This document shows, piece after piece, positions 1 to 36,445 of a stretch of 64,000 nucleotides of DNA. Numbering within the stretch: the first letter of the stretch is position 1; each line of letters starts with the position of its first letter. The position numbers and the translations under genes are program-made. Location: the NCBI GenBank assembly GCA_038212075.1, contig JBBQUV010000005.1:9984-73983 (forward strand), given 5' to 3'. Below the pieces are notes generated by a model, which ran no database searches, was not told where the DNA came from, and saw nothing but the letters and a program-made list of their open reading frames with translations. This stretch comes from Minisyncoccia bacterium (GTDB lineage: Bacteria; Patescibacteriota; Minisyncoccia; Phycocordibacterales; Phycocordibacteraceae).

Positions 1-171
1 AACATCTCTTTACGGACGTGGAGATCTTCAGACTTACCATCTTCAAAACGGATAGCGGCAACTCTAAAGTATCTCCCTGGACTGATTGCCCTTCGCTACA
101 CCATCAAAGGGTTTGCGTAGTAGCGATGCAAAACAAGTACAGCAATCTCCATTCGAGGGCCGGCGCTTTTT

Positions 172-1365
172 TTGTTGAAAAATCGTCTCGTGAGGCGTAC
201 AGTTATTTTTGTAAATATGAATTATTCGCGTGTCATAGATGAAATCTTTCGCCAATTCGACGGGCCCAGATTTTCAATTAAATTATGGGATGGCTCAGAG
301 CGTTATTACGGGTCAGGTGAATCAATAGCGTTTACTCTTGTTATTGACGACGCAATAACCGCCCAACGCTTGCTGGCCCAGGGAGCACTCGGCTTTGGAG
401 AGGCTTATATGGAAGGGAGTCTGCGGATTGAAGGAGATCTTGAGGCATATCTTCGGCTTCGCCATCAATTCAAGCATGTGCGGCGTTCGTTGCGACTCAT
501 GTTCGCCACTTTTCTCGCTAGCAGAAACATACCTCGGGATAGGAAGGATCAAATCGCTTATCACTACGATCTTGGCAATGATTTTTTTCAAATGATTCTA
601 GATCAAAAAACGATGTCTTATTCTGCTGGACGTTATGAGACTGGTTCAGAAGATTTAGCGACAGCCCAGCAAAAAAAGCTTGAATTGATATGTCGCTGGC
701 TCAATCTTCCATCTGGCGCATCAGTTCTCGATCTTGGGTCTGGGTGGGGTGGATTTGCTCAGTATGCTGCAAGAAATATGCACTGGAATATTACTGGATA
801 CACGTTAAGTAACGCTCAACTGGAATATTGTCGACAGCTCATAGGAACAAACCAATTGAACTCGCTGGTGTCATTTGAATATCGTGACATGCTAGAAGAT
901 CTTCCAGCCAGCCAATTCGATGGGATTGCTATGATCGAATCTATAGAACACGTCGGTCAAAAAAGACTCCCTCTGTTTTTTGACCAGCTCAAACAGGTGC
1001 TTAAGCCGGGGGGATCGGCAGTCATTCAGTTTACGGGCCGATATAAACCACACCCTGTAGATCGGTGGACATTAAAGTACGTATTTCCAGGAGGATACTT
1101 GCCGACCAAGGAAGAACTTATTGCTGCTGCTACCCAATCCGGTTTTGTAGTTGAAGAATTTTGTGACGATACTCCTGATTACATCCGTACAATGACTGCA
1201 TGGATAAAAAACTTAGAAAGTCATCGTAACGATCTCGAACGTAAATTTAATAAGTCATTCTATCTACTTTGGGAGCTGTGGATGCACGGAGTGAGGGTTG
1301 CTTTCGAAATAAACTCTATGAGTTTATTTCGTCTTCACTTAAAACGCCCCAACAAGACCTTGTAG
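172..1365 (+). CDS. cyclopropane-fatty-acyl-phospholipid synthase family SAM-dependent methyltransferase (start may be the Met at 217)
   Basis: 397-aa ORF; class I SAM motif VLDLGSGWGGFAQYAARN; N-terminal WDGSERYYG region and overall length typical of CFA/mycolic-acid-synthase-like lipid methyltransferases. Confidence 0.7.
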   Translation: MLKNRLVRRTVIFVNMNYSRVIDEIFRQFDGPRFSIKLWDGSERYYGSGESIAFTLVIDDAITAQRLLAQGALGFGEAYMEGSLRIEGDLEAYLRLRHQFKHVRRSLRLMFATFLASRNIPRDRKDQIAYHYDLGNDFFQMILDQKTMSYSAGRYETGSEDLATAQQKKLELICRWLNLPSGASVLDLGSGWGGFAQYAARNMHWNITGYTLSNAQLEYCRQLIGTNQLNSLVSFEYRDMLEDLPASQFDGIAMIESIEHVGQKRLPLFFDQLKQVLKPGGSAVIQFTGRYKPHPVDRWTLKYVFPGGYLPTKEELIAAATQSGFVVEEFCDDTPDYIRTMTAWIKNLESHRNDLERKFNKSFYLLWELWMHGVRVAFEINSMSLFRLHLKRPNKTL

Positions 1366-1407
1366 GTAGGCAATTCGTGTGAGAAAATGGTATTTTAATT
1401 CAATACT

Positions 1408-1956
1408 ATGATCAACCCACAGCCAATACCTGCTTTGAATGAGACCACTGTTGCCCCAGTGCCGGTAGTAAAGAGTATTTGGGGCAAAGGTATACCCCGG
1501 ATCAACCGAATTTTCATGGTCATTTCACTTATACTCGTTTTGGGACTAGATCTCGCTATCCTTTTTGTCTCAGGTTTTTTGTTGCTTCCATTCTGGATCG
1601 TCATGCTTGTGGTGCTTGGAGTATTTGCAGTATTCTTTTATCTTGAAAATTATGTATTTAGCAAAAGATTCGCAAATACTAAGTCTGCATTAGATCCGTG
1701 GATATCTGCAATTATCGTCGCACGCAACGTCATTTTTGTGCTCAACTTCGTTCCTTTAATTCAAATACTCGGGCTCGCATTTCTTGCCGGGTTTTCTGCG
1801 GTCATCCCGAGCGCCTTATTTGGGAGCAACCTTTCTGGGCTTGGCGACTTAGGCGGTCTTGGAATAATGCCGATGATAGTACCTGGGCTATTTTTACTCT
1901 ACATCATTCTCATGGCTGCCCGATTTTCAGCGACAAAGAAAGTACCTGGTCAATAA
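1408..1956 (+). CDS. hypothetical polytopic membrane protein
   Basis: 182-aa ORF with several hydrophobic helices; no motif recognised. Confidence 0.4.
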   Translation: MINPQPIPALNETTVAPVPVVKSIWGKGIPRINRIFMVISLILVLGLDLAILFVSGFLLLPFWIVMLVVLGVFAVFFYLENYVFSKRFANTKSALDPWISAIIVARNVIFVLNFVPLIQILGLAFLAGFSAVIPSALFGSNLSGLGDLGGLGIMPMIVPGLFLLYIILMAARFSATKKVPGQ

Positions 1957-1960
1957 GTAT

Positions 1961-2647
1961 CTACGCCAGTTGAAGAATTTTCTCCATCAAGACAGAAGCC
2001 GCTTTTTCATAATCGTTTCGATCAACGTCAATTACTGCGTCCTCCGTATTTTGAAAGATATCTTTTGCGTAGAGCGGTGCGCCAAAAGTCACAATGACTT
2101 TTCTCTTACCACTGAGGAGATCTCTAAACGTGAGCTGTTCCAAATCCTGTATTAATAGGGGTACTATTGGGAGTTGCTTCTCCCTAGCAAGGAAACTTAC
2201 TCCACCTTTGGCTACAGGAGCCTCTCCTCGCAGGTTTCTTTTTCCTGATGGAAAAATACATACACTCTTTCCCTTATCAATAAACGTAAGGTGATGGTGA
2301 AGGGCACGTTTGTAGTTCTTTAATCCCACATATGCTTGGTATGCGCCCATCATTTTAAAAAAAATTCCACCGTAAATAATCCGTTTCCACCCGTTTTCAG
2401 CATAAAAGTTCTTTTCACGTGAAGTAAAAAACAGCGGAAGGTGGCGAGAAAAGAAAGGTAGGCATGCAACTATTAACAATGGGTCCAGTTCGCTCGTATG
2501 ATTGCTGGCGATAATCATATTACCTTTTATGTTTTTGACGTTCTCTAAACCCCTAATCTCAAGAGAACAAAAAATAGACATCGAGACCCGCAAGGGACCC
2601 CATATGAGGTGTTGGAACACACTGGGCATTATTTCGTATGTTTCCAT
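1961..2647 (-). CDS. lysophospholipid acyltransferase (PlsC/LPLAT family)
   Basis: 228-aa ORF; HX4D acyltransferase motif NHTSELD, downstream FP..G/R blocks typical of 1-acyl-sn-glycerol-3-phosphate acyltransferases. Confidence 0.6.
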   Translation of the reverse strand: METYEIMPSVFQHLIWGPLRVSMSIFCSLEIRGLENVKNIKGNMIIASNHTSELDPLLIVACLPFFSRHLPLFFTSREKNFYAENGWKRIIYGGIFFKMMGAYQAYVGLKNYKRALHHHLTFIDKGKSVCIFPSGKRNLRGEAPVAKGGVSFLAREKQLPIVPLLIQDLEQLTFRDLLSGKRKVIVTFGAPLYAKDIFQNTEDAVIDVDRNDYEKAASVLMEKILQLA

Positions 2648-2739
2648 TTAGCAGGGATACATTTACCTGTGCATAAGTACACTTTTCATCCACACTAGCA
2701 TAGTATTATATTCCACATAAGAGACCTCTTATTAATACT

Positions 2740-3396
2740 TTGAAAGTAACAACTATGAACTCCTCTGTAGTACTGTTTTTCATAAGTAACGTGCTGGCCA
2801 CGGTCTTGTTGGGTGGCAAATTTGTAAGCAGAAACGACCGCGTTTTTAAGTATTTTGGAATCGGTCTTCTGCTTGATGCTACCGCATTCGCAATGTGGAC
2901 GATCGGGTATATCAATCCAGGACAGCTTCTAACGTTCGTTACCTTTGGCGCGATGGCTTTTCTTGCTTCTCTGGTTGTTTTCCTATTTGCATCTCTTCAG
3001 CAAACTCCTGCAAGTACCCGCTTGTTAGTAACACTCCTTGGGGCCGCCGCCGTCATTGGAATATTTTACGTTGGAAACCAGTCTGCTAATTCGGCATTCA
3101 TATCGCCCGAAGGATTTCTGTTCTTTAATTTGACGCCACTCGTTCAAATGATTTATCTTTTCGGGCTGGCGTTTGCCTCACTTCCATTAATCGACATGAT
3201 CGCTTCAAGATTTAAAGCACCGTTTTCCGCACTTGTGCGATACGGTCTTATTACGGAGGTTGTGGGAGGCATCATGCTTATTACGAATAAGGACGCTCAA
3301 GTCCTGTACATTACCGGCTGGATTATAGGTATTGTGTATTTTGCTCTCTGGGCAACACTGCTTTTTAACCGCAAAGCTTGGTCGAGCGCAAACTGA
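2740..3396 (+). CDS. hypothetical polytopic membrane protein (first gene of co-directional operon 2740-10296)
   Basis: 218-aa ORF, about 6 predicted TM helices; no motif recognised. Confidence 0.45.
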   Translation: MKVTTMNSSVVLFFISNVLATVLLGGKFVSRNDRVFKYFGIGLLLDATAFAMWTIGYINPGQLLTFVTFGAMAFLASLVVFLFASLQQTPASTRLLVTLLGAAAVIGIFYVGNQSANSAFISPEGFLFFNLTPLVQMIYLFGLAFASLPLIDMIASRFKAPFSALVRYGLITEVVGGIMLITNKDAQVLYITGWIIGIVYFALWATLLFNRKAWSSAN

Positions 3397-3468
3397 ACGA
3401 ACGCTTATGGGTTCGTTTTTTGCTTGCCCCTTCTCTCGGGGTAGAGTACGGTTTACTGCTTTGCACCC

Positions 3469-4434
3469 ATGAAAGTATTAATTACAGGAATCACTGGAAA
3501 TTTAGGCCATGAAGTATCGCTTGACTTGCATCGGCGAGGCAGCACTCTAATACCTCTTGTACGCTCGGGAAATAGCAAAATTACATCTCACCCAGTACAT
3601 TTTGAAGAAGTGATCGAGGGTGATTTGGTGGAAGAAGGAGAAATTAAATTTTCCGGTGCGGTCGACTGCATTGTTCACTGCGCTGGGGTTGTTCGTTTTC
3701 GTGAGCCCAAAAATAAGAATGAACAGATGATGTTGCGGGTGATAGAGCTCGCAAAGGAGTTGGCAGTGCCTGTCTACGCCGTAAGCACCGCGTTTGTATA
3801 TAGACCACGAGGCACAACTAATGGATTCAATAATGACTATGAGCAAGACAAATTTCGAGCTGAACAAGCCCTTATTAGTTCTGGCGTATCGTATAGCATA
3901 TTTAGACCTTCGGTTTTAACCGGTAACAGTCACACCGGAGAAATACAGAACTTCAGCGGCTACTATCTAATGGTACGAGCGTTTTTATCCGCGGCACGTA
4001 ATGCGATTGAGCATGGGCGCCTGCTGAGATTTCCAAAAATGACTGGAGAATCAAACATGGTTCCTGTCGATCAGGCGGCAGAGTATATTGGCAAAACCAT
4101 ACAAGACGGCCCCCTCAAAGAGATATTCTATATTACTAATCCTGCACCACCTCGATCTGAATGGGTACTCGACGAGACGTTAAACTTTTTTGGCATTCGC
4201 AACGACGTTACCGTATTAGATGTGTCGTTTCAGGAATTTGGCGAACTCAATCTTACGGAAGAAGAGGCTGCGCTTTATCAATTTGCATCACATTTTAGCC
4301 CCTATTGGTCTACGGGATATGAATTTCCCGCTTCTCTTTGCAGCCATAATCTGATAAGTCATAGCTACTTAATGAAGGCACTAAACGTCTTTCGTAACAC
4401 AGAACAACTCGCTTATGGACAAAAAACTTATTAA
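3469..4434 (+). CDS. extended SDR family NAD(P)-dependent reductase/epimerase (thioester- or fatty-acyl-reductase-like)
   Basis: N-terminal Rossmann motif ITGITGNLG; catalytic YxxxK as YEQDK followed by FRAEQAL (resembles YxxSKxxAE of thioester-reductase domains); RPSVLTG block. Confidence 0.6.
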   Translation: MKVLITGITGNLGHEVSLDLHRRGSTLIPLVRSGNSKITSHPVHFEEVIEGDLVEEGEIKFSGAVDCIVHCAGVVRFREPKNKNEQMMLRVIELAKELAVPVYAVSTAFVYRPRGTTNGFNNDYEQDKFRAEQALISSGVSYSIFRPSVLTGNSHTGEIQNFSGYYLMVRAFLSAARNAIEHGRLLRFPKMTGESNMVPVDQAAEYIGKTIQDGPLKEIFYITNPAPPRSEWVLDETLNFFGIRNDVTVLDVSFQEFGELNLTEEEAALYQFASHFSPYWSTGYEFPASLCSHNLISHSYLMKALNVFRNTEQLAYGQKTY

Positions 4435-5497
4435 TTATAGCCAGTGTTGGGAAGATCCTCAGATCTTGGAAGAAGCGCTTTCGATTCACACAGGTGACTG
4501 CGTTCTATCCATAACATCGGGAGGAGATAACACGTTGGCTCTCTTGCTTGCCGGTCCGCAAAAAGTGGTCTCAATTGATCTGAATCCAGCCCAAAATTAT
4601 TTGCTTGAACTGAAGATGGCTGCGGCACAAAGCCTTACATACACAGAGTATCTGGAATTTTTAGGTGTTGTTGAATCAAACACCAGGGCTTCATACTTTG
4701 AAAAAGTACGTCCGCACCTGTCTTCTGCCACGAGTGTATGGTGGTCAAATCATACCCACTTAGTCGGCAAGGGTGTTATTCATTGTGGTCGCTTTGAGCG
4801 ATTCACCACGTGGTTTGCACAAAATATTTTACCACTCATACATTCCAGAAGCACGATTCTAAGTCTTCTATCTTTTAGCGATGTCGAGGATCAGCGGATT
4901 TTCTACCGAGATCAATGGAACTCTTGGCGATGGAGATTCCTTTTTGGTCTGGCATCCAACCGATTCATGTTGAGAAGGTTTGCTCGTCAACGAGGGATGT
5001 TTTCGTATTCAAAAGGAAAGACAGTCGCCGACTTGTATCGTAAAAGATTAGAGCGACACCTTACCGCTGTCTCTATTGAAAGCAACTTCTTCTTACATTA
5101 CAGCTTGACGGGAAAATATGGTCACGACCTACCTCCGTATCTGCAAGAAAAAGGATATTCGCAGTTGAAGCGAGTGTCAGCGTCAGCGCTCTCGATTGAG
5201 ACGAATGATCTCTTAACTTATTTAAGATCTAAACCCGCCAGCACCTTTTCCAAGTTTAATCTATCGGACATATTTGAAGCTCTTTCCCCAGTAGAAAATG
5301 ATATCTTATGGGAAGAAATTCTTCGCACAGCAAAGCATGGTGCTGTTGTGGCGTATTGGAACAATCTTGTTCAACGAACCTACCCACCTCATTTATCCGC
5401 TCATTTTCAGGTAGATGAGAAACGTGTGAGCCAGTTACGGTCAAAAGATAAGGTTTTTTTCTATGAAAGTTTTCATGTCCATACCATTCTAAAATGA
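4415..5497 (+). CDS. DUF3419/BtaA-like putative SAM-dependent transferase
   Basis: 360-aa ORF; N-terminal YSQCWEDPQILEEAL block, which I recall as the signature of DUF3419 (betaine-lipid synthase BtaA family); Rossmann-like VLSITSGGDNTLALL..VVSIDLNP; overlaps the upstream gene by 20 nt. Confidence 0.4.
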   Translation: MDKKLINYSQCWEDPQILEEALSIHTGDCVLSITSGGDNTLALLLAGPQKVVSIDLNPAQNYLLELKMAAAQSLTYTEYLEFLGVVESNTRASYFEKVRPHLSSATSVWWSNHTHLVGKGVIHCGRFERFTTWFAQNILPLIHSRSTILSLLSFSDVEDQRIFYRDQWNSWRWRFLFGLASNRFMLRRFARQRGMFSYSKGKTVADLYRKRLERHLTAVSIESNFFLHYSLTGKYGHDLPPYLQEKGYSQLKRVSASALSIETNDLLTYLRSKPASTFSKFNLSDIFEALSPVENDILWEEILRTAKHGAVVAYWNNLVQRTYPPHLSAHFQVDEKRVSQLRSKDKVFFYESFHVHTILK

Positions 5498-6390
5498 TCA
5501 CAAGAGCATATAAAACAGTTAAGAAATTCTACTCTTATCAACAAAAGCGATTCCCTTTGATCGTGCTGGCCCTGAGTCTCTCTCCAGCCATTTTAAGTTC
5601 AGGAGCCATTATATCTGTTCATCCGAGCATATTTCATATGGGTTCCGCACTTGTAGCTTCAATTGCATACCTGTTGCATATTAGAATTATAGATGAGCAT
5701 CGTGATTTTGATCACGATAACGTACACCATGCCACCCGCCCTGTTCAGGCGGGGACTATCTCCAAAGAGGAACTGCATCATATAGATATCTCGGCAGTTG
5801 CTCTTTTGGTTCTTATCGCAGCAAGTGCAGGATCACAAGCTTTTGCAACTGCGGTAGTCATGCTGTCGTACTCATATCTCGCTGGAAAGGAATTCTTCGT
5901 TGGTGAAAAGATCCGCAGATATTTTTTTAGTTATAACGCTGCAAATCTTATTCAAATGTTCTTGATGCAGATTTTTGTATATACGATTTTTGCAAATCCA
6001 TTCCCATTTAACACACTTATTCTCGCTCACTTTATTTTTACGAGTGTCGGTACGGTCATTTTTGAGTTTGTACGTAAGCTAAAAATACCAGGGGACGATG
6101 GTTCGGGTAGAGATACATACACTTGGTATCTTGGATTTTATAAAGCGATCGCTATCTATCAAGTGCTCCTCGTATCAGATACGTTACTTTTCATATGGAT
6201 TGCAACACTTCTTTTGCCACATACTGCTGTTCTACTCTCTTTTGCGTTAGGATTAGCGATGTTGGCTTCTTTGTCCACTCTGATCCATACAAGGAAGAAG
6301 ACACATCAGACAGATCAACTTATGCAGCTGTCTTTTTTGCTCTTATACGGAATCTTCAATCTCGCAATTTATTTCCTTAAAATCATATAA
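5494..6390 (+). CDS. UbiA-family integral membrane prenyltransferase
   Basis: 298-aa polytopic protein; Asp-rich motif DEHRDFDHD followed by NVHHATRPVQAGTIS (compare UbiA NDxxDxxxD...RTANRPLPSG); ATGA overlap with the upstream gene. Confidence 0.55.
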   Translation: MITRAYKTVKKFYSYQQKRFPLIVLALSLSPAILSSGAIISVHPSIFHMGSALVASIAYLLHIRIIDEHRDFDHDNVHHATRPVQAGTISKEELHHIDISAVALLVLIAASAGSQAFATAVVMLSYSYLAGKEFFVGEKIRRYFFSYNAANLIQMFLMQIFVYTIFANPFPFNTLILAHFIFTSVGTVIFEFVRKLKIPGDDGSGRDTYTWYLGFYKAIAIYQVLLVSDTLLFIWIATLLLPHTAVLLSFALGLAMLASLSTLIHTRKKTHQTDQLMQLSFLLLYGIFNLAIYFLKII

Positions 6391-8667
6391 ATGCTTAAAA
6401 GTGGCAAGGCACATTCGCTAAGACGACTTAAAGACGGTGGCTGTCTCGTGCCTCCATTTTTTGTGTGTGATGCAACGTGGTCAGAGGGAGAGATATTGAA
6501 AAAGATAGATACCAGCCTACCAGGTGTTGAGTATTTCGCTGTTCGCTCTTCAGCAGCGAATGAGGATTCAAGTGATCGATCTTTTGCGGGGCATTTTTAC
6601 ACTGCAATAGGAGTAGGTCGTCGAGATATCATTGCAGAAGTAGGTAAGGTGCAAAAGTCCTACGAAGAAATGTCAGGTTCGGTAATCGTGCAGGAGTTCA
6701 TATCCAGCGATACGGCTGGCGTCATGTTTACTGAAGTGGGCAAAGACACTGTAGTCATAAATTCAACAACCGGTCTTTGTCGACCAGTCGTTGAGGGTGG
6801 TGCGTGCGATGAATATTTGTTGAGCAAAGATGGTACTTTGGTACGAAAAACGATTCCTACAGAAAAAGGAGTACTTCTGTTTAAAGATCAGAAGATTATT
6901 TCCGAAAAGAGTAGTGAAGAATCTCTCAATGAGTCGAAGATAAGCCAATTGATAAAGGTAGGTGCTAAGATTCAGGATCTTTTTGACTCGCCTCAAGATA
7001 TTGAGTGGTGTTTCAAAGATGGCGAATTATATATTCTTCAGTCTCGCCCCATTACGAGGGATTTTAAAGTTGGAAAGGAAGAATATTTTGATAGTGCCAA
7101 TATAGCAGAAAGTTATTCAGGTATTGTTCTTCCTCTTACTTGTTCATTCGCCAAGACGGTATACGAACAGGTCTACAAGGACCTCCTTCACATGTCTGGG
7201 GTCTCAAGAAAAAAGATAGAGCGTCATTCCGAAGTCTTTGAAGGCTTACTCGGTTTTTTCTATGGAAGGATGTACTACAACATGAACAATTGGTATCGCA
7301 TGGCGGAGTTCGTACCCGGGTATAGTAGGAACAAACAGAACTTCGAGTTAATGATTACGAGCAACATCAAACAAGATGTTGCAACGGTAATAAGACCCTC
7401 TTTTGGTCTACGAGCTCTGTACCCCGTAATTGTTGGCCTAAAGGTAGCTGCGTTCGGAGTTACTTCATCGAGTTTTAAATCGGGAGTAGAGTGCCACTTA
7501 CGTCTCCTTAGAAATCAGGACTTCAAACGTCTAAACTATAAAGACTCAATCACTTTATTTGAAAATATAAATAAGAATCTATTGCGCCGATGGTACATCA
7601 CGCTTGAGAACGATTTTTTTGTGATGACGTATTTAGGAATTCTGAGAAAGCTACTTAACGAAGATCTATTGCAAAAAGCCATTACGTTTCCAAGTAAAGC
7701 AACTGAACAGGTTGATGCGCTGTCGGCTCTTAGTAAGCAAATGAGTGACGTTAGGGAAGTATGGCAGGCTGTCGAATCTGACGATGTTAAAAGATTTAAG
7801 GTGGAACTGGAACGTAATGCAAAACTATCTGTCGCTCTTGATACCTATCTACACACATTCGGTGGAAGATTTGCAAGCGAGTTAAAGCTTGAATCAATCG
7901 GCGTGGATGAAGATCCAAAAAAACTGTTTGTAGTTTTAAAGGCCTATCGGAATTACAAGCCTAAATCAGGCATCGTTCAACCAGATTTATCCTTACCTTT
8001 TTTCAAGAAGCTTATCGTAAAGATAATAGTGGGTAAATTCAGGAAATACGCCTCTCGCCGTGAGGACTTTCGTTTGTTGCGTTCTAACACGTTTGCTATG
8101 GCCAGACATCTCTTCAGACATATGGGTACCTTGCTGGTAAGGGGGGGTAGCATACAAAACCAGGGCGATGTGTTTTATTTAACAATGCAAGAAATACTCG
8201 ATCCACGAGCCCATACGCATAGCCATCTCACAGAGGTCGTGGCAAAGAGAAAAGAAGAATACGTCTCCTATAAAGATACCGTTCCACCATCTCATTTTTC
8301 GACGATTAATGGTCAGCTACCCCCAGTCGTAGCTTCAGCCATGTCCAAGCAACATACAATTCATGCTCGCCCAGCATCTCCCGGAACGGTGAGAGGTCGA
8401 GTAAAGGTATTTAGAGAGTTTTCAATGCCAAATCAAGTAGACTTTGATATCTTAGTGACATCACACACTGATCCGGGGTGGACGTCACTTATCGCGTTAT
8501 CTAAAGGGCTTATTATTGAGCATGGCGGGGTGTTGTCGCATGCTTCAATTGTGGCCCGAGAGTTGGGCATACCAGCCGTAATTGGTGCCACAAATATTCT
8601 CAATACACTAGTAGACTACCAAACAGTAGAAATGGACGGATCGACTGGAGTAATTAATTTATCGTAG
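6391..8667 (+). CDS. PEP-utilising-enzyme family protein (PEP synthase / rifampin-phosphotransferase-like ATP-dependent phosphotransferase)
   Basis: 758 aa; PPDK_N/ATP-grasp block FAVRSSAANEDSSDRSFAGHFYT; C-terminal swivelling phospho-His domain GGVLSHASIVARELGIPAVIG; no PEP/pyruvate-binding TIM-barrel segment evident. Confidence 0.7.
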   Translation: MLKSGKAHSLRRLKDGGCLVPPFFVCDATWSEGEILKKIDTSLPGVEYFAVRSSAANEDSSDRSFAGHFYTAIGVGRRDIIAEVGKVQKSYEEMSGSVIVQEFISSDTAGVMFTEVGKDTVVINSTTGLCRPVVEGGACDEYLLSKDGTLVRKTIPTEKGVLLFKDQKIISEKSSEESLNESKISQLIKVGAKIQDLFDSPQDIEWCFKDGELYILQSRPITRDFKVGKEEYFDSANIAESYSGIVLPLTCSFAKTVYEQVYKDLLHMSGVSRKKIERHSEVFEGLLGFFYGRMYYNMNNWYRMAEFVPGYSRNKQNFELMITSNIKQDVATVIRPSFGLRALYPVIVGLKVAAFGVTSSSFKSGVECHLRLLRNQDFKRLNYKDSITLFENINKNLLRRWYITLENDFFVMTYLGILRKLLNEDLLQKAITFPSKATEQVDALSALSKQMSDVREVWQAVESDDVKRFKVELERNAKLSVALDTYLHTFGGRFASELKLESIGVDEDPKKLFVVLKAYRNYKPKSGIVQPDLSLPFFKKLIVKIIVGKFRKYASRREDFRLLRSNTFAMARHLFRHMGTLLVRGGSIQNQGDVFYLTMQEILDPRAHTHSHLTEVVAKRKEEYVSYKDTVPPSHFSTINGQLPPVVASAMSKQHTIHARPASPGTVRGRVKVFREFSMPNQVDFDILVTSHTDPGWTSLIALSKGLIIEHGGVLSHASIVARELGIPAVIGATNILNTLVDYQTVEMDGSTGVINLS

Positions 8668-8670
8668 GCC

Positions 8671-9675
8671 ATGAATATCAAACCATATCAAAATAACTCT
8701 TTCGCCAACGAGCTCAGCGATCTCCTGCGGAAGAAATATGGAAACAACAAAAACTTCGACTATTTTTTAAGTGACTTCAGGAAGGCGTTTAGCTTTTGTA
8801 TTGATAATGAGAATGTAAATTTTCAACCAATTGCTGGGTTTGAAGCAGAACAATTGCGTGCACATATCGCTCTCATTGTTGATAAAAGATTACCAACAGG
8901 TGAGGCATTTTTTGGCTTCCTAGAAGCTCCTGAAGACGCCTCGATATTCAGTCTAATGTGGAACAGTCTAGTGCAAGAAGCTCGTGACAAAGGAATTTCG
9001 ATTCTCAAGGGTCCTGTAAACGGGAGCATCTGGCATCAATATAGGTGTGTCAAAGAAACAGACGGCTCTAACTTTTTTAAAGCAGAATTATTTTGCGAGC
9101 CTTACTACTATGATTTTCTTGTCTCAAACAAACCAACCACCGAAGTGCTCTACTACTCAGCTTCTCGGGAACATTTCGATATCGTGTTGCGAATGATCAG
9201 TGAAGCTTCGTACAAGAAACTTGGTGCTTCCGGCTTTTCTATCAAGGCGACGAAACAGGTCACCCCTGAAGAGATGCAAACGGTAGCGAACATCTCCAAA
9301 ACAGTCTTTCATAGTAGTTGGGGATATACCGAACTGAATGAGCGAGAGTTTATGCAGCTCTATTCGCCGGACAAATTAAGTTCACATCTTAATACGCTGT
9401 ACTTGCTCTATAAGGGGAGAGAAATCATAGGTTTTTGTAGTACTTCCAAGGAAGATGATACAACTCTCATTCTAAAAACAATCTGCATTTTGTCACCATA
9501 TCAAGGTTTAGGTTTAGGAAATGCTCTGGCATATAAAATACATCTCGACGCCAAGGAAGACGGTTTTGAAAAGATGGTCTACGCTCTGATACGAGAAGGT
9601 AATAACATAAAGAATTTCCCCAAAGAGGAGGCTGTGATTTTTCGACGCTATGCAGCCTTCGAATTTCACATATAA
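8671..9675 (+). CDS. hypothetical protein with C-terminal GNAT-like acyltransferase fold (possibly tandem GNAT)
   Basis: 334 aa; GNAT motif-A-like YQGLGLGNALAYKI near the C-terminus; no other motif recognised. Confidence 0.4.
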   Translation: MNIKPYQNNSFANELSDLLRKKYGNNKNFDYFLSDFRKAFSFCIDNENVNFQPIAGFEAEQLRAHIALIVDKRLPTGEAFFGFLEAPEDASIFSLMWNSLVQEARDKGISILKGPVNGSIWHQYRCVKETDGSNFFKAELFCEPYYYDFLVSNKPTTEVLYYSASREHFDIVLRMISEASYKKLGASGFSIKATKQVTPEEMQTVANISKTVFHSSWGYTELNEREFMQLYSPDKLSSHLNTLYLLYKGREIIGFCSTSKEDDTTLILKTICILSPYQGLGLGNALAYKIHLDAKEDGFEKMVYALIREGNNIKNFPKEEAVIFRRYAAFEFHI

Positions 9676-9678
9676 AAT

Positions 9679-10296
9679 ATGTATATCTCTCTTTTTCTCC
9701 TCGTGTCTGTGGCCTTTATTGCGAGTGTAGAACTTGTAAAAAGGAGGGCTCAGATTTCAAGTGATTTTACCAGAAGAGTGACCCATATAGGTGCAGCGTT
9801 TATTGCGGCGGCGGCCCCACTGTTTATAAACCAGCAAGCAATTATTATCGCGTGTCTATTTTTTGCTGGCACATTACTGCTCGCACGTCGGAGCGATATG
9901 TTTTCGTCGATACATGACGTTAAGCGCACCACCTTTGGAGACGTTTATTTACCCTTGGGGGAGGCTATTTCTGCTGCTATCTTTCTTCCTCATGCAGTCT
10001 TAGCTTTCCAATTCGGAGTGCTTGTGATGGGTATATCTGACGCCTTGGCAGGTCTCGTTGGCGAAAAATTCGGCAGACATAAGGTTACTTTTTTCGATAA
10101 TACAAAGAGCCTTGAGGGAGCCACGGTTTTTTTTGTCAGTACCCTAATCTTGGCGCTTCTGTTCGTTCCGGTTTTTAGTTACCAAATATTGTTTATCGCC
10201 GTCATACTGACGCTGGTGGAGTTCTTACTGATATATGGCTTAGATAACTTAGTATTGCCGATTATCGGATCGATTCTCATTCAAACGGTACTGTAG
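9679..10296 (+). CDS. CTP-transferase-family (CdsA superfamily) membrane protein, polyprenol (dolichol/phytol) kinase-like; a CDP-alcohol-synthase (CarS-like) role is not excluded
   Basis: 205-aa polytopic protein; block ISDALAGLVGEKFGRHKV...KSLEGATVFFVS resembles the dolichol-kinase/phytol-kinase C-terminal signature (GDxxAxxxGxxxGxHK...K[ST]xEGS); lacks the PGHGGxxDRxD of true CdsA. Confidence 0.5.
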   Translation: MYISLFLLVSVAFIASVELVKRRAQISSDFTRRVTHIGAAFIAAAAPLFINQQAIIIACLFFAGTLLLARRSDMFSSIHDVKRTTFGDVYLPLGEAISAAIFLPHAVLAFQFGVLVMGISDALAGLVGEKFGRHKVTFFDNTKSLEGATVFFVSTLILALLFVPVFSYQILFIAVILTLVEFLLIYGLDNLVLPIIGSILIQTVL

Positions 10297-10409: not shown

Positions 10410-10886
10410 ATGATATCTAAAAACACAATCTGTATTTGGTTTGATAAAGATGCGGAAACTGCGGCGAATTTTTACGCCGCTACTTTTCCGGATAGCAACG
10501 TAGTTAGTGTTTTCCGTGCGCCAAGTGATTTCCCTGGTGGTAAGCAGGGCGACGTACTAACGGTAGAGTTTATTGTTTGTGGAATTCCCTGTATCGGTTT
10601 AAATGGCGGTCCTATATTTAAGCAAAGTGAAGCTTTTTCCTTTCAGATTGCAACGGACAATCAGGAAGAAACAGATCGCTACTGGAATGCGATTGTTGAG
10701 AATGGTGGTCAAGAGAGCGAATGTGGATGGTGCAAGGATCGCTGGGGAGTATCGTGGCAGATTACGCCACGCACCCTTACCGAGGCGCTTGCCGCCGGTG
10801 GCGCAGAAGCAAAACGAGCGTTTGACGCGATGATGACTATGAAAAAAATCGATGTAGCCGCTATTGACGCCGCACGACGGATTTGA
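10410..10886 (+). CDS. VOC/PhnB-like protein (Pfam '3-demethylubiquinone-9 3-methyltransferase' domain family)
   Basis: 158 aa; WGVSWQI block and size typical of that glyoxalase-fold family. Confidence 0.55.
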   Translation: MISKNTICIWFDKDAETAANFYAATFPDSNVVSVFRAPSDFPGGKQGDVLTVEFIVCGIPCIGLNGGPIFKQSEAFSFQIATDNQEETDRYWNAIVENGGQESECGWCKDRWGVSWQITPRTLTEALAAGGAEAKRAFDAMMTMKKIDVAAIDAARRI

Positions 10887-11834: not shown

Positions 11835-13799
11835 GTGGAAGCCCCTATTCCAGAAGCGACACCTCCCATTCCGCCAGTGCCTGGCGCCCACCCGGAAATA
11901 AGCATAACTCTATTTGCTGGCATCATTATTCTGGAAATCTTGCTCGTTTGCGTATTTGCCTCGTGGAAATTTGGATTTCTGACGGAAAAAAATACTGTAG
12001 TAAATAATGGTGAAGAAACAAGCACCGTAACAGAAGACACTGGAACATCGCAAGGGAACTACAATTCTTCTGATCGATTTTTGACTCCACAACAGTTTCA
12101 AGTTGCGCGATTAAGTCTTGGCAGTACCACCCCCAAAGTACTCAAAGACAAGTATGATCTGTTCGTGCTCAGCCAACCGTACGAAGATATTGATACTAAC
12201 GGCGTTACCACCTATTACGAAGATGGGACTTTGTCGTCGGGAACATATGCGGGATACCATGTGATTATTGCTCGTATTACACCCTATGACAACGATGGAC
12301 CTGGCAGTAGCGACGAGTACTACACCTTCATCACCAAGGATTACCGCTCATTTATTGTATTTACCCCAGAGATAGGAAAACTACCGAATCCGACATGGTT
12401 TAATACTGCGCGCGTTGTCCAAGCGGATCATTTCGCAACTCATTTTCCAAACACTATTCCGTTTGGGAATTTTGTTCTTACAAAAAGTGAATGGTTTAAC
12501 TCAGATGTTTTGTATGATCACAACAATACTTCTCCTGTAGGAACGGTTGAACTCACGAGTCCCGATCCACACCTGAAAATTTTCTCTGAGCCAGAAGAAC
12601 CTCTTACTAACCTTGAAGATACTCTTACAAAGACGCTTGCCGATGCTGCAGCCGCGTACATTTATGGGCGGACCACCGTTATGGTGCGCGATGAAGCAGG
12701 GATTGGATTTGTTTACTCGCTTTCCTTTGCGCACTTTGCAAATCCAAATGATCCAGCAGGTCGTATTCCAAACACCGAGTACCGCTACGGATATTTGGGA
12801 GTAGCTCAAAACCAGCCGACGCTCTATTCTTCCTATGCAAAATTAATTCCTTACGGTTGCGAAGGCGCAAACTCCTCTGAGAGTTACGTTCTTAAGAATA
12901 TCTCTGATGCTGATGTCCGCGACACGGGTATTAAGTGGCAGGGTGTTGAGTTGTATGCCTTTGCGAACGCACGTAATCCACTCACCGAGGCCCATTATCG
13001 TCAAAAGGTTGCAGCATACGCCGCGATATATAAGAACGGAAGCGAGTCCGCCACTCTGGATACACTTGCGTTTACTGACTATATAGCAAAAACCCCAACG
13101 CTTCTTTTTAAAGATCCGTGGGGCAGATGGGTGGGTGTTGGAGAAGATGAATACAAGGTAACTGGAGGTTGCGGGAAACCGGTGATTTACCTGTATCCTC
13201 CTCAATCGACTGAGGTATCAGTGCAATTTATGCAATCACCGAGGTTCACTACTGATATACCAATCTATGAAAATGGTTGGAAGGTACTCGCGGAAACGAC
13301 GGGAGCACTTCACGACTTGCAGCCAGCCCTGACTCCTTGCGAGACATTGGCTACCAACGTATTTGGCTCCGAATATGCGGGAGCAGCCTGCAAAACAAAC
13401 ACCTACCCATATCTCTTCTGGGCAGGACAAGCAAATGGAAACTACCCAACGCCGACTGGAGGATGGATTGTGGAGAAGGCAAACATAGAATCGTTTCTAG
13501 GATCAAAATTGACTGAGCTTGGCTTAAATGACACAGAACGCAATGACATGCTCTCATTCTGGGTGCCGCAACTCATGAAAAAGAATAGTCCGTACTATCG
13601 GTTGGCTTTCTTTCAAACGAGCGAAATGAACCATTTCATACCTATGATTATTTCACCGCGTCCCGATAGCATGCTCCGACTCTTCCTTGATTGGACACCG
13701 CTTTCTACTCTTCCGGATCATCTCCCACAGCCACAACAGTTACATCAATTCCACCGGTCTGGATTTGCGGTAGTCGAGTGGGGAGGTCTTGATCGTTAA
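11835..13799 (+). CDS. hypothetical large exported / membrane-anchored protein
   Basis: 654 aa; Pro-rich N-terminus then one TM/signal-anchor (ISITLFAGIIILEILLVCVFASW); large hydrophilic Y/W/N/T-rich ectodomain; no motif recognised. Confidence 0.55.
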   Translation: MEAPIPEATPPIPPVPGAHPEISITLFAGIIILEILLVCVFASWKFGFLTEKNTVVNNGEETSTVTEDTGTSQGNYNSSDRFLTPQQFQVARLSLGSTTPKVLKDKYDLFVLSQPYEDIDTNGVTTYYEDGTLSSGTYAGYHVIIARITPYDNDGPGSSDEYYTFITKDYRSFIVFTPEIGKLPNPTWFNTARVVQADHFATHFPNTIPFGNFVLTKSEWFNSDVLYDHNNTSPVGTVELTSPDPHLKIFSEPEEPLTNLEDTLTKTLADAAAAYIYGRTTVMVRDEAGIGFVYSLSFAHFANPNDPAGRIPNTEYRYGYLGVAQNQPTLYSSYAKLIPYGCEGANSSESYVLKNISDADVRDTGIKWQGVELYAFANARNPLTEAHYRQKVAAYAAIYKNGSESATLDTLAFTDYIAKTPTLLFKDPWGRWVGVGEDEYKVTGGCGKPVIYLYPPQSTEVSVQFMQSPRFTTDIPIYENGWKVLAETTGALHDLQPALTPCETLATNVFGSEYAGAACKTNTYPYLFWAGQANGNYPTPTGGWIVEKANIESFLGSKLTELGLNDTERNDMLSFWVPQLMKKNSPYYRLAFFQTSEMNHFIPMIISPRPDSMLRLFLDWTPLSTLPDHLPQPQQLHQFHRSGFAVVEWGGLDR

Positions 13800-16869: not shown

Positions 16870-18090
16870 ATGGATATACGAGCAGATGCTCACGCGCTGT
16901 ATAAAAAAAATCGCCGCATGCATGGGGAGTTTGAGTACACGGTCCCAGACGGATTCGTCTACCCTTATCAGTGGCTGTGGGACTCTTGTTTTCACGCAAT
17001 CGTGCTTTCCATGCTTGAACCAGATGCCGCAAAACGTGAGCTTGAGTCGCTCGTTTCAAAACAATTTGCAGATGGGATGGTTCCCAATATTATTTTTTGG
17101 GATATAAAAATTACTCGACCCTATCACTGGGATTGGGTAACAGGCAAAACTACTTCTATTACCCAGCCACCAATGCTTGCGTATGCGGCATGGGAAGTGT
17201 ATCGCCGCACCGGCGACAAGGCGTTTCTTGAAAAACTCTATCCGCACATTCTTGCGTTTTATAAATATTTGATTGGCAATCGCGACCCGCAAGACCACCA
17301 TCTTGCCGGCATCATAAATCCTGATGAGTCCGGTGAAGACAATTCACCACGTTTTGATATTCCTATGCATGTCGATAGCGATATTTCGTTTCTTGGGCAT
17401 ATGCAACGACGACGCAAATTGATTCATGAAAATCGCGTATGCAATTTTGACGCAGAGATTTGCATGAGCAAAAACTTTTGGGTAAAAGACGTGCCCTTTA
17501 ACGCCATACTCATTCGCAATCTTGAGTCACTCGGACACATCGCTTCGTTTCTTGGTCATGAGCAAGGTGAACAGTTTGCAAAACTACATTCAGGACTGGT
17601 TGCAAATGCAATGCGTGAACGGTTGTTTGCTGACGGCGTGTTCTGGTCTGCGATGGATCACGACTATAAACCACTTCGAGTTGCAACATGGGCGCACTTT
17701 GCTCCGTTATTTGCGGGGCTCTATACGAAAAACGAGGCAGACGCACTGATGAGTGAGCACTTTGAAAATCACGAAACTTTCCGCTCGCGATTCGGCATTC
17801 GTACGGTTTCAAAGCAGGAGCCCGCGTACCGTTCGGACGCGTTTTGGCGCGGCCCTATCTGGTTTGCGCCACACTGGTTTATCTACCAAGGACTGATGAA
17901 TTATGGTTATAAAGCAGAAGCAAAGTTTATTCGTGATGCAACCGTAGGACTGATTGAACAAAATGGGTTTCGCGAGTATTTCAACCCAGAAACTGGTGTG
18001 GGGTACGGTGCACGCAACTTCACCTGGGGTGCGCTCGTGCTTGATATGGAAGAGGAGGTGCCGTGGTCGCAACCAGAAAACGGCGCGTGA
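16870..18090 (+). CDS. six-hairpin glycoside hydrolase-like protein (GH63 / glycogen-debranching / mannosylglycerate-hydrolase-like)
   Basis: 406 aa; YPYQWLWDSCFHAI block typical of (alpha/alpha)6-barrel glucosidases. Confidence 0.5.
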   Translation: MDIRADAHALYKKNRRMHGEFEYTVPDGFVYPYQWLWDSCFHAIVLSMLEPDAAKRELESLVSKQFADGMVPNIIFWDIKITRPYHWDWVTGKTTSITQPPMLAYAAWEVYRRTGDKAFLEKLYPHILAFYKYLIGNRDPQDHHLAGIINPDESGEDNSPRFDIPMHVDSDISFLGHMQRRRKLIHENRVCNFDAEICMSKNFWVKDVPFNAILIRNLESLGHIASFLGHEQGEQFAKLHSGLVANAMRERLFADGVFWSAMDHDYKPLRVATWAHFAPLFAGLYTKNEADALMSEHFENHETFRSRFGIRTVSKQEPAYRSDAFWRGPIWFAPHWFIYQGLMNYGYKAEAKFIRDATVGLIEQNGFREYFNPETGVGYGARNFTWGALVLDMEEEVPWSQPENGA

Positions 18091-18103
18091 TACACTTCAC
18101 GTA

Positions 18104-19207
18104 ATGGATTTTTTAAAAAAGCTTTATTCAAAAAAGGGTTTGCTCCACCTCTATCGACCGAATCGGCCAATTTCGGTAGTACTTGTCGCGTGCGCTCTTT
18201 TTATATATATCGTCGGGTTCAGCAGTCTTTTCACCATTCAATATAAGCACGTAGATGCTGAGGCGGTATTAGCACAAGTACAAAAGATAGCACCCCTTGC
18301 TACACCGAAACTGGATACGAAAGCGTACGATGCAAAGATGGCGTTTCTTGCCCATACAGCAACCACCACAAGTACGTCAACGCCAAAACTATGGCCGGTA
18401 AAAGCGGCGTATCCGAATGCGGGCGCGTTATTACCTTTTAATCGCATTGTTGCGTACTACGGAAATTTTTATTCAAAAGGTATGGGTGTGCTTGGCGAAT
18501 ACCCAACCGATCAAATGATTGCAAAACTTCAGGCTGAAGTGAAGGTGTGGCAGGCCGCGGATCCAAAAACACCGGTGATTCCGGCTATTCACTATATTGT
18601 AGAAACGGCTCAGGGCAGTCCCGGTAAGGAAGGAAAATATCTGCTTCGTATGCCAGAAAGCCAAATAGACATTGCGCTTGCCGATGCCGAAAAAGTGCAC
18701 GGTATTGTCTTTCTCGATTTCCAAGTAGCACTCAGTAGTCTTCCTGCAGAGCTACCAAACTATGTGAAATATCTAGCAATGCCGAACGTGCATCTTGGTG
18801 TTGATCCGGAATTTTCCATGCATAACGGTGCGCGACCAGGAACGGTGATTGGCATCATGGATGCAACGGACATAAATTACGCTGCGAATTTTCTTGCGGC
18901 GCTCGTAAAAGCAAACAATCTTCCACCAAAAATGTTGGTGATACACCGTTTTACGGAAGGCATGGTAACTAACTACAAAAACATAAAGCCACTTCCCGAG
19001 GTACAGATAGTGATGGATATGGACGGATGGGGCTTCGGTGCAAAGAAAATTAATACCTACAATCAAGTGATTTATCCGGAGCCAGTGCAATTTACTGGAT
19101 TCAAACTCTTTTATAAAAACGACGTGAAGCCGCCGTCCACCCGCATGCTCACCCCTGCTGAAATTTTGAAACTGATACCATCACCGAGTTACATTCAGTA
19201 TCAGTAG
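18104..19207 (+). CDS. hypothetical membrane-anchored protein (start moved to ATG 18104, just after the upstream stop)
   Basis: ORF track starts at 17954 inside the preceding gene; MDFLKK...ISVVLVACALFIYIV gives a signal-anchor start; a TIM-barrel glycosidase-like fold is possible but unverified. Confidence 0.45.
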   Translation: MDFLKKLYSKKGLLHLYRPNRPISVVLVACALFIYIVGFSSLFTIQYKHVDAEAVLAQVQKIAPLATPKLDTKAYDAKMAFLAHTATTTSTSTPKLWPVKAAYPNAGALLPFNRIVAYYGNFYSKGMGVLGEYPTDQMIAKLQAEVKVWQAADPKTPVIPAIHYIVETAQGSPGKEGKYLLRMPESQIDIALADAEKVHGIVFLDFQVALSSLPAELPNYVKYLAMPNVHLGVDPEFSMHNGARPGTVIGIMDATDINYAANFLAALVKANNLPPKMLVIHRFTEGMVTNYKNIKPLPEVQIVMDMDGWGFGAKKINTYNQVIYPEPVQFTGFKLFYKNDVKPPSTRMLTPAEILKLIPSPSYIQYQ

Positions 19208-33275: not shown

Positions 33276-33325
33276 CGCGTTATGCGAATGCATACATTCA
33301 GACAGCTAGGTGCACATTGTCTTTT

Positions 33326-36439: not shown

Positions 36440-36445
36440 TTGCGT

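Follow-up and report, generated by a model that had tools for sequence, protein, structure and literature searches.

What is the function of a gene pair that joins a UbiA-like prenyltransferase to a membrane protein of the CdsA superfamily in a bacterium of the candidate phyla radiation (CPR)? The pair lies within positions 5494-10296 of a 64,000-nucleotide stretch of DNA, hereafter the window, from a Minisyncoccia bacterium (contig JBBQUV010000005.1, positions 9,984 to 73,983). A preliminary description had assigned to it a 298-aa UbiA-like protein and a 205-aa protein, read either as a digeranylgeranylglyceryl phosphate (DGGGP) synthase with a CDP-archaeol synthase, or as enzymes that prenylate an acceptor and CTP-activate or phosphorylate a polyprenol. 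Both open reading frames (ORFs) are present in the ORF listing with the motifs quoted for them (Table 1), and their key residues are invariant in the family alignments A1, A2 and A3. The interval forms the 3' end of a module of ten genes (172-10296), which is defined by dikinase, GNAT, DUF3419, reductase, PlsC and CMAS genes that the preliminary description omitted. We tentatively propose that this module is a conserved, membrane-associated system for lipid building and remodelling in a Parcubacteria-type CPR bacterium.

The interval 5494-10296 contains four tightly packed genes on one strand, which encode the UbiA-like protein, the dikinase, the GNAT acyltransferase and the 205-aa polyprenol-kinase-like (PolK-like) protein. 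The DUF3419 and UbiA genes overlap by 4 nt, the UbiA and dikinase genes abut at 6390/6391, and spacers of 3 nt precede both the GNAT gene and the 205-aa gene, which is separated from the next gene at 10410 by a gap of 113 nt. The four genes are translationally coupled. The complete module runs in the order CMAS, small transmembrane (TM) protein, PlsC on the minus strand, TM protein, short-chain dehydrogenase/reductase (SDR), DUF3419, UbiA, dikinase, GNAT and PolK-like. We limit it to 172-10296 because neither the gene at 10410-10886 nor the 654-aa ORF that follows is conserved with it; the former has no counterpart beside the module in any other CPR locus compared. On the upstream side, the boundary is set by the CPR locus L013, in which the genes located 5' of CMAS encode IMPDH and GMP synthase. 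Promoter-like sites were no more frequent than in shuffled sequence, and a terminator-like hairpin at 3395-3418 is the sole hint of a sub-operon boundary in the promoter and terminator scan. The G+C content is 0.41-0.44 in the module region (window positions 1-10000) and 0.46-0.52 in positions 10001-64000, a difference that may reflect horizontal acquisition or the composition of membrane proteins.

The module is conserved among CPR bacteria. We compared 21 CPR loci, five of them fetched via the 205-aa protein and 16 from species-representative genomes, and found the UbiA/205-aa pair in the same order in 21/21, at 44-63% identity to the window (the 205-aa protein where the contig reaches). The ten-gene order is kept in every CPR locus long enough to show it, with protein identities of 41-77% and unrelated flanks, and both PlsC and CMAS are present in every complete CPR module. 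Such recurrence of the flagged pair is far beyond chance. Homologues of the pair come almost exclusively from metagenome-assembled genomes (MAGs) of Parcubacteria/Paceibacterota, Taylor-, Kaiser-, Staskawicz-, Davies-, Levyi- and Saccharibacteria, one carrier (P0067) being a Crystal Geyser ('CG08') Parcubacteria MAG. The carriers also include the 775-kb contig ERZ26695824:contig_1. Among the MAGs of loci L013, L015, L019 and L021, several are labelled 'uncultured Gammaproteobacteria' or 'Bdellovibrionales'; their module proteins are 41-63% identical to those of the window, a range also seen for named Parcubacteria MAGs, and these labels may be wrong. Individual loci also show local rearrangements. 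In L003, the module has as neighbours conjugative type IV secretion system (T4SS) genes (TrbC, TrbL and TraG-like) as well as the RVT_1 + bAvd pair of a diversity-generating retroelement. In L001, an insertion sequence (IS) occupies the place of PlsC, and the SDR reading frame is broken into two, 114 and 204 aa long.

Outside CPR, we screened the loci of two distant UbiA members and 80 metagenome loci with hidden Markov models built from the CPR proteins, the metagenome scan patterns being taken from the subgroup alignment A5 because the broad UbiA alignment A4 was too diverse for patterns. Distant UbiA relatives of only ~20-25% identity are accompanied by the same core, namely UbiA, dikinase, DUF3419, PolK-like and GNAT genes, on more than 30 soil contigs. 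Among the 40 distant loci of at least 9 kb, the dikinase lies beside UbiA in every case (40/40), followed by DUF3419 (36/40), GNAT (33/40) and PolK-like (29/40). The module is ancient, its core being kept at such divergence, and this persistent pairing bears out the functional link that had been suggested between the UbiA-like and 205-aa proteins. The core is also found in two cultured bacteria, Brevibacillus laterosporus B9 and Roseinatronobacter sp. S2, in the latter on a plasmid, with generic annotations only. The Brevibacillus operon, at about 463.3-474.7 kb of NZ_CP011076.1, reads HMGR-UbiA-dikinase-DUF3419-PolK-GNAT-AMP-ligase-P450; the Roseinatronobacter operon occupies 128.2-136.2 kb of plasmid NZ_CP121116.1.

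Comparison of these versions revealed two patterns of gene displacement. The first concerns the reductase slot, which is filled by the NAD_binding_4 SDR in CPR, and by HMG-CoA reductase (soil loci and Brevibacillus) or FAR elsewhere. De novo clustering combined with Pfam identified an AMP-ligase in 30/32 soil loci and HMG-CoA reductase upstream in 21/32, whereas FAR (NAD_binding_4 + Sterile) occurs in five soil loci, all of which lack PolK and carry a second dikinase. The second concerns the kinase: PolK is present in 26 of the 33 loci in which its position is covered, and none of these 26 carries a second dikinase, compared to five of the seven PolK-less loci, in which it lies upstream of UbiA. 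Together, the two displacements point to two phosphorylations and one thioester-to-alcohol reduction. PlsC is absent from the non-CPR versions. In addition, the non-CPR PolK-like domain is fused to an extra C-terminal polytopic domain of ~220 aa that has no Pfam match (examples in Table 1); hhalign revealed no relation of this domain to either of the CPR membrane proteins of 218 and 182 aa (probabilities <1%). A radical SAM/SPASM gene and two ORFs of ~350 and ~165 aa accompany the PolK-poor core in three loci (L026, L081 and L090).

The 298-aa protein represents an uncharacterised clade of the UbiA superfamily. It scores 30.9 bits against PF01040, under the gathering score of 34.2, and most of its homologues have a precomputed match to this family; its best NCBIfam match, the uncharacterised 'prenyltransferase' model PRK13592, has a cutoff of 443 bits, of which the protein reaches 36. 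The AlphaFold2 (AF2) model, built from 23 homologues, has a pLDDT of 90.4 and adopts a UbiA-type all-alpha fold with ~9 TM helices (Foldseek probability 1.0). Its structural partners are about equal, and comprise DGGGP synthase (DGGGPS, 6m31), AfUbiA (4tq3/4tq4), ApUbiA (4od5) and UBIAD1 (8djk), with TM-scores of 0.52-0.64 (query-normalised) or 0.55-0.66 (target-normalised) and identities of 14-16%. The first Asp-rich motif, D67-E68-H-R-D71-F-D-H-D75 ... T81-R82-P83-V-Q-A-G87, follows the pattern (N/D)DxxDxxxD + R-P...G with Glu, not Asp, at the second position. Fold and motif thus both support the initial assignment to the UbiA family. In alignment A3 (43 clade sequences, with relatives of 19-30% identity), residues R19, R64, D67, D71, D75, G87, R194, K195 and G214 are invariant, to which alignment A2 of the CPR family (23 sequences) adds R82, P83, E191, D202 and D207. 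The second acidic region of the CPR family is E191-x-x-R194-K195 ... D202-x4-D207, the spacing of which is not that of the canonical DxxxD.

The clade as a whole has the signature YQxERFP...LRxxDExKDxxHD...RPxxRG...KEFF...ExxRK...DTYS, and is related only to the uncharacterised models PRK13592 and PRK05951. Exhaustive profile search, counted in clusters at 50% identity, retrieved 75 with a threshold of E<=1e-30 and 960 with one of E<=1e-10. The UbiA-like protein deposited at NCBI (P0110) has 250 aa and spans 84% of the 298-aa ORF. The N-terminal stretch Y15-Q16-x-x-R19-F20-P21 lies inside this ORF, with R19 invariant and Y15 and P21 nearly so across the clade; the deposited start codon is therefore probably placed too far downstream, as judged from this conservation.

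The same protein could be suspected of an ordinary respiratory function, as a UbiA, MenA or CyoE orthologue that serves quinone or heme O synthesis. Some homologues are indeed named '4-hydroxybenzoate polyprenyltransferase' by the automatic annotation of JGI, and the gene at 10410-10886 matches the Pfam family 3-dmu-9_3-mt ('3-demethylubiquinone-9 3-methyltransferase', 1e-48), a name that could misleadingly point to a quinone pathway. However, the scores of the 298-aa protein are far below the cutoffs of the respective NCBIfam models (24.9 versus 180.8 for ubiA_other TIGR01475, 17 versus 264 for MenA NF004751, and no match for CyoE), and the gene at 10410-10886 is not conserved with the module elsewhere. 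Moreover, no quinone, GGGPS/PcrB or IPP-pathway genes are present among the 30 large window ORFs scanned against Pfam. Family scores and synteny effectively refute this explanation, to which we give next to no weight; of the evidence that the preliminary description named against its own proposal, neither affinity of the protein to CyoE or MenA nor quinone genes among the scanned window ORFs were seen.

The 205-aa protein, searched alone, has no Pfam or NCBIfam match, even at E<=10, so that its superfamily assignment rests on evidence at the family level. PF01148 is matched weakly by 10 of the 27 family members (best 5.9e-5), and the family profile has no match among PDB sequences. The AF2 model (pLDDT 88) has eight TM helices, and Foldseek against the PDB found a sole match, to Thermotoga maritima CdsA (4q2e; probability 1.0, E 0.013, TM 0.41). 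The dolichol kinase literature defines a CTP-binding motif, DxxAxxxGxxxG-x(8-10)-K[ST]xEG, which is common to CdsA. In the 205-aa protein, it is recognizable as S120-D121-A-L-A-G-L-V-G128-E-K-F-G132-R-H-K-V ... K143-S-L-E146-G147, with D121, G128, G132, K143, E146 and G147 at the defining positions. Across the family (alignment A1, 27 sequences), R32, H36, D121, G128, K143, G147, E181, D189 and N190 are invariant, position 33 is always R or K, and the triad T142-K143-S144 is present.

Two lines of comparison place this protein closer to kinases than to cytidylyltransferases. CdsA proteins carry a C-terminal signature, K-R...K-D...P-G-H-G-G..D-R.D, and have a length of ~250-290 aa (PROSITE). 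By hhalign, residues 120-147 pair with residues 164-192 of E. coli CdsA over the 28 columns of the shared CTP motif and with nothing else; the C-terminal half of the CdsA signature is left unaligned, the length is 205 aa and PF01148 is absent, so that an identity as CdsA is not supported. CarS is not supported either, since none of the 27 family members matches PF01864 at E<=1, and it is not among the best 50 Foldseek matches listed for the model. By contrast, the R32-[RK]33-x-x-H36 clamp, T142-K143-S144, E181 and the eight helices correspond to features of Plasmodium PfPolK, whose model has an Arg29-Lys30-His33 clamp, a Thr144 hinge and Glu179; this correspondence is to the published description, not by alignment (PMC10849223). 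The 205-aa protein therefore looks like a polyprenol kinase within the CdsA/CTP-transferase superfamily rather than a cytidylyltransferase, in line with its earlier description as dolichol/phytol-kinase-like. The next-nearest family in the profile search comprises CPR proteins of ~217 aa that JGI auto-names 'dolichol kinase' or 'phytol kinase'. This separate PolK-like family, from Saccharibacteria and relatives, lies near an MgtC-like gene, and the module context is absent at both loci inspected (L023 and L024); it may represent the housekeeping polyprenol kinase of CPR.

These results bear directly on the archaeal-type ether phospholipid pathway, in which the UbiA protein would be a DGGGP synthase and the 205-aa protein a CarS-like or CDP-DAG synthase. 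Such a pathway has in common with the module the UbiA fold, the first Asp-rich motif and a membrane partner of the same broad superfamily that shares the CTP motif with CdsA, and for the UbiA protein, both the structural and the profile search place DGGGPS 6m31 first. At the sequence level, however, the profile match to the Methanocaldococcus jannaschii enzyme (E 3.5e-4) covers the first motif only, the identity is 15-16%, and DGGGPS fits no better than AfUbiA. In the 205-aa family, a PF01864 match and the C-terminal signature of CdsA are both lacking, and the R-[RK]-x-x-H clamp is of the kinase type. Neither the modules nor the window ORFs that were scanned contain a gene for GGGPS/PcrB, the partner of a DGGGP synthase. 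In one distant locus, L026, the core does have genes for a CDP-alcohol phosphatidyltransferase and for a weak CarS-like protein as its neighbours; as the latter is separate from the PolK-like gene beside it, PolK-like and CarS are not equivalent. We consider the archaeal-type pathway very improbable, and the pairing of DGGGP synthase with CDP-archaeol synthase is not upheld. The alternative offered with it, prenylation and the phosphorylation of a polyprenol, is the better reading and is supported.

A polyprenol kinase beside a UbiA homologue could also belong to polyprenyl-phosphate carrier metabolism of the cell envelope, where the PolK-like protein would recycle undecaprenol to undecaprenyl phosphate, the UbiA protein would act like the decaprenyl-phosphate phosphoribosyltransferase Rv3806c and load an activated head group onto polyprenyl phosphate, and the dikinase would make the activated donor. 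PolK-family members are known to phosphorylate polyprenols (PMC10849223). Genes for a phosphatase of the PAP2 family and for MurJ, the lipid II flippase, are further located in the window, from which we conclude that the organism uses polyprenyl-phosphate carriers; tblastn with E. coli UppS and CdsA found no orthologue of either in the 64-kb window. Foldseek also matched the UbiA model to structures of the Rv3806c-type phosphoribosyltransferase (8j8j and 8j8k), but less well (E 0.017-0.43) than to the UbiA homologues that use prenyl diphosphates (E 7.5e-6 to 1e-3). Carrier metabolism would leave DUF3419, GNAT, AMP-ligase, the acyl-CoA reductases, PlsC and CMAS unexplained, and housekeeping recycling is fitted better by the stand-alone 217-aa Saccharibacteria kinase family. 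For these reasons, we regard it as improbable.

The gene following UbiA encodes a dikinase with a PPDK_N domain (residues 47-226, 4e-31) and a PEP-utilizers domain (residues 686-753, 7e-22). The closest solved relative is the Listeria rifampin phosphotransferase Rph (5fbs/5hv1, 172 bits), an enzyme that phosphorylates a hydroxyl on a hydrophobic substrate. Residue His717, in ...GGVLSHASIVARE..., aligns with Rph His825, the phospho-carrier. Similar to Rph, PigC/RedH and PpsA-like dikinases, the protein combines ATP-grasp, central and swivelling His domains with a catalytic His, and a PEP/pyruvate-binding barrel is absent (no PF02896 match). It differs from them in its divergent central domain, in lying always beside a UbiA-clade gene, and in scores far under the equivalog cutoffs (195 versus 999 for Rph NF041857, 168 versus 1300 for PigC, and 445 versus 883 for NF004881, the best PpsA-like model). 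In fact, each module protein comes from a known superfamily, and none reaches an equivalog threshold.

The DUF3419 (BtaA-like) protein matches PF11899 with 251 bits, residues 6-356 covering positions 10-383 of the 385-position profile, and is a putative SAM-dependent 3-amino-3-carboxypropyl transferase. It shares its full-length DUF3419 domain with the BtaA/BtaB system of DGTS synthesis, which is likewise associated with membrane lipids and yields a phosphorus-free head group. Unlike that system, the module contains no BtaB-type N-methyltransferase gene, its sole methyltransferase being Cfa-like, and the DUF3419 protein shares only 24-28% identity with rhizobial and 'BtaA family' proteins, compared to 33-35% with its module-linked homologues in Brevibacillus and Roseinatronobacter. 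A GNAT in place of BtaB suggests N-acylation rather than N-trimethylation. This two-domain GNAT, whose family alignment A6 covers both CPR and soil versions, carries the CoA motif QGLGLG, and the nearest solved structures of its C-terminal domain are YncA and the phosphinothricin type of amino-acid N-acetyltransferase.

Upstream lie also the CMAS-family methyltransferase, PlsC, the SDR and two membrane proteins. The CMAS-family methyltransferase shares 30% identity with E. coli Cfa along its entire length, with E239 and Y317 retained, A or S in place of C139 and Q in place of H266; its gene is syntenic in 17 CPR loci. PlsC is the only minus-strand gene of the module, has the HX4D motif in the form NHTSELD, and is constant in position and orientation in the CPR loci, apart from the IS element in L001 and a truncation in L004. 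The OlsB/OlsA and GlsB/GlsA pairs of aminolipid synthesis combine an N-acyltransferase with a PlsC-type O-acyltransferase. The CPR module may resemble them in pairing a GNAT-fold N-acyltransferase with PlsC, but differs in that its GNAT matches Acetyltransf_1 rather than the OlsB family and that PlsC is missing from the non-CPR versions. The SDR has the motifs GxxGxxG (GITGNLG) and YxxxK (YEQDK), matches the thioester reductase model TIGR01746 at 1e-10, below its cutoff, and was undetected by tblastn in L008, L009 and L018. The counterparts of the 182-aa membrane protein in other CPR loci are longer, with stop-to-stop ORFs of 283-366 aa, and the extra ORFs found between CMAS and PlsC in some CPR loci have no Pfam match.

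Table 1. Positions of the module genes, of other features of the window and of features in the compared loci.
Feature	Location	Position	Strand	Evidence or remark
CMAS-family SAM methyltransferase, N-terminal DUF7884 (first module gene)	window	172-1365	+	PF02353, 1e-61
Small membrane protein, 182 aa	window	1408-1956	+	no Pfam match; same position in 15 loci
PlsC-type lysolipid acyltransferase, 228 aa	window	1961-2647	-	PF01553, 6e-17
Membrane protein, 218 aa	window	2740-3396	+	no Pfam or NCBIfam match; 20 CPR loci, 41-77% identity
Extended SDR, NAD_binding_4/thioester-reductase type, 321 aa	window	3469-4434	+	PF07993, 6e-15
DUF3419 (BtaA-like) protein, 360 aa	window	4415-5497	+	PF11899, 2e-74, full length
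UbiA-superfamily transferase, uncharacterised clade, 298 aa	window	5494-6390	+	PF01040 sub-threshold, AF2 model, motifs
Rph-type dikinase, 758 aa	window	6391-8667	+	ATP-grasp, central substrate domain, swivelling His domain
Two-domain GNAT N-acyltransferase, 334 aa	window	8671-9675	+	Acetyltransf_1 at residues 221-311
Polyprenol-kinase-like (DolK/VTE5/PolK-type) membrane protein, 205 aa (last module gene)	window	9679-10296	+	family-level evidence
PAP2-family phosphatase	window	33317-33892
Lipid II flippase MurJ	window	48853-50511
Large ORF, 654 aa	window	11835-13799		no Pfam match at E<=1e-3 or E<=1e-5
Large ORF, 639 aa	window	36440-38359		no Pfam match at E<=1e-3 or E<=1e-5
Large ORF, 417 aa	window	17954-19207		no Pfam match at E<=1e-3 or E<=1e-5
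Large ORF, 355 aa	window	52870-53937		no Pfam match at E<=1e-3 or E<=1e-5
PolK-like fusion	L036	8629-9969
PolK-like fusion	L085	6579-7964
PolK-like fusion	L109	9190-10545
Radical SAM/SPASM gene and two ORFs	L026	5863-8618
Radical SAM/SPASM gene and two ORFs	L081	7235-9969
Radical SAM/SPASM gene and two ORFs	L090	7076-9902
Conjugative T4SS genes and retroelement pair adjoining the module	L003	10945-19260
IS at the place of PlsC, and split SDR	L001	1929-3004 and 3793-4741		IS: HTH_Tnp_1 + rve
Separate PolK-like family, ~217 aa	L023	6001-6654
Separate PolK-like family, ~217 aa	L024	6001-6654

From the observed gene content, folds, motifs, synteny and displacement patterns, we propose a pathway in which every substrate, the order of the steps and the product are suggested by the enzyme families. 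UbiA enzymes need a diphosphate donor, and the module supplies two phosphorylating enzymes and, nearly always, a thioester-to-alcohol reductase. The most economical chain would run from an acid or a scavenged alcohol through alcohol, monophosphate and diphosphate to transfer. A lipid alcohol would be supplied first, most likely a scavenged or reduced isoprenoid or another allylic long-chain alcohol, possibly through the thioester-reductase-like SDR in CPR, and through AMP-ligase together with HMG-CoA reductase or FAR in the non-CPR versions. The PolK-like enzyme would then use CTP to form the alcohol monophosphate, and the dikinase, converting ATP to AMP and Pi via phospho-His717, would add the second phosphate to give an alkyl or prenyl diphosphate. 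At its Asp/Glu-Mg2+ site, the UbiA-clade enzyme would release diphosphate and transfer the chain to an acceptor. The BtaA-like DUF3419 protein might add a SAM-derived 3-amino-3-carboxypropyl (homoserine-ether) group, the amine of which could be N-acylated by the GNAT, so that the product would be a phosphorus-free aminolipid or betaine-like lipid. In CPR, PlsC would finally re-acylate lyso forms and CMAS would methylate or cyclopropanate unsaturated chains; PlsC and the Cfa-like enzyme, both CPR-specific additions, point to remodelling of acyl lipids.

Among the closest known counterparts is plant phytol salvage, which proceeds from VTE5 of the PolK family via VTE6 to VTE2 of the UbiA family. 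The module resembles this VTE5/FOLK-VTE6-VTE2/HPT route of plants and cyanobacteria in placing a PolK-family CTP kinase upstream of a diphosphate-needing UbiA enzyme, with two successive phosphorylations; eight TM helices, the Arg-Lys/Arg-His clamp and the CTP motif are shared with VTE5 and the Plasmodium PolK kinase. It differs in the second kinase, which would be an Rph-type ATP dikinase (or, in variants without PolK, one of two dikinases) rather than VTE6. Moreover, the module genes are clustered, the acceptor appears tied to DUF3419 and GNAT instead of homogentisate, and the UbiA proteins form a separate clade. A more specific version of our proposal, possible but rather doubtful, is that the module provides an unrecognised route to glycerolipid-like or glycerol-free amphiphiles, in which PolK and the dikinase would make the diphosphate, the new UbiA clade would transfer the chain in ether or ester linkage, and a SAM-derived, N-acylated homoserine would form the cap.

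Several points weigh against lipid building as we propose it. The chemistry, with every substrate and product, is read from enzyme families throughout. The second Asp motif of UbiA is atypical, position D202 being usually Glu in the wider clade (consensus ExxxxDTYS), which gives E-x4-D. Since a saturated alkyl diphosphate would be a poor UbiA donor, the alcohol would have to be allylic, benzylic or similar. The module has no isoprenoid-synthesis gene save HMG-CoA reductase in the non-CPR versions. The DUF3419 protein has a low identity to the BtaA type, BtaB is absent, and the acceptor may be something other than a glycerolipid. Nor does the dikinase have to form a diphosphate, because its Rph-family relatives PigC and RedH can activate carbonyl oxygens. 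The module is also rare, being carried by 16 of 185,579 species-representative genomes as searched with narrow patterns. Finally, the P450 at the end of the Brevibacillus operon and the radical-SAM trio in L026, L081 and L090 look like specialised metabolism.

These last features raise the possibility that the core makes a specialised small molecule instead of a bulk membrane lipid, such as a prenylated, N-acylated amino-acid derivative, or else a signalling or antibiotic lipid, and that CPR bacteria gained it horizontally. The P450 and the radical SAM/SPASM or ABC transporter genes of other versions fit this idea, and so does the role of the Rph relatives PigC and RedH in pigment biosynthesis. 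Horizontal gain is consistent with the plasmid location in Roseinatronobacter, the T4SS genes beside the L003 module, the patchy distribution within CPR and the lower G+C of the module. On the other hand, CPR genomes of ~1 Mb seldom retain 10 kb for secondary metabolism, and the core includes at least three polytopic membrane enzymes. In CPR, it is always joined by PlsC and a Cfa-like enzyme, both of which work on the acyl lipids of membranes. In L076, glycolipid and phospholipid genes surround the module: directly upstream are those for an alpha/beta hydrolase, a glycosyltransferase that is MGDG-synthase-like and a protein that is PLD/cardiolipin-synthase-like. We therefore hold a specialised product to be unlikely, and prefer lipid building and remodelling as the tentative function.

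Lipid building by the module would matter for the origin of CPR membranes. A large part of bacterial diversity belongs to the ultrasmall CPR/Patescibacteria. Their genomes reportedly lack every complete membrane-lipid pathway known, and the source of their lipids is a standing question (PMC7242380). Lysolipids accounted for 31% of the intact polar lipids of one CPR-enriched cell fraction, and all of these lysolipids had betaine head groups (PMC7242380); the tie between the module and these findings is circumstantial. In the more specific and rather doubtful version of our proposal, CPR bacteria would turn scavenged host lipids or alcohols into phosphorus-free membrane lipids of their own, autonomously, and the module would be the genetic basis of the betaine-type lysolipids in CPR-enriched fractions. 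We found no description of this gene combination in the searchable literature. The core defines a large uncharacterised UbiA clade, which comprises ~1,000 clusters at 50% identity; it also joins UbiA to an Rph-type dikinase in a new partnership, and points to a putative non-BtaA role for DUF3419 proteins. Since the core is also present in Brevibacillus laterosporus B9 and in Roseinatronobacter sp. S2, its chemistry can be approached in culturable organisms and then in CPR. Altogether, a conserved ten-gene cluster of lipid enzymes in some CPR bacteria offers a concrete and testable lead on where their lipids come from.

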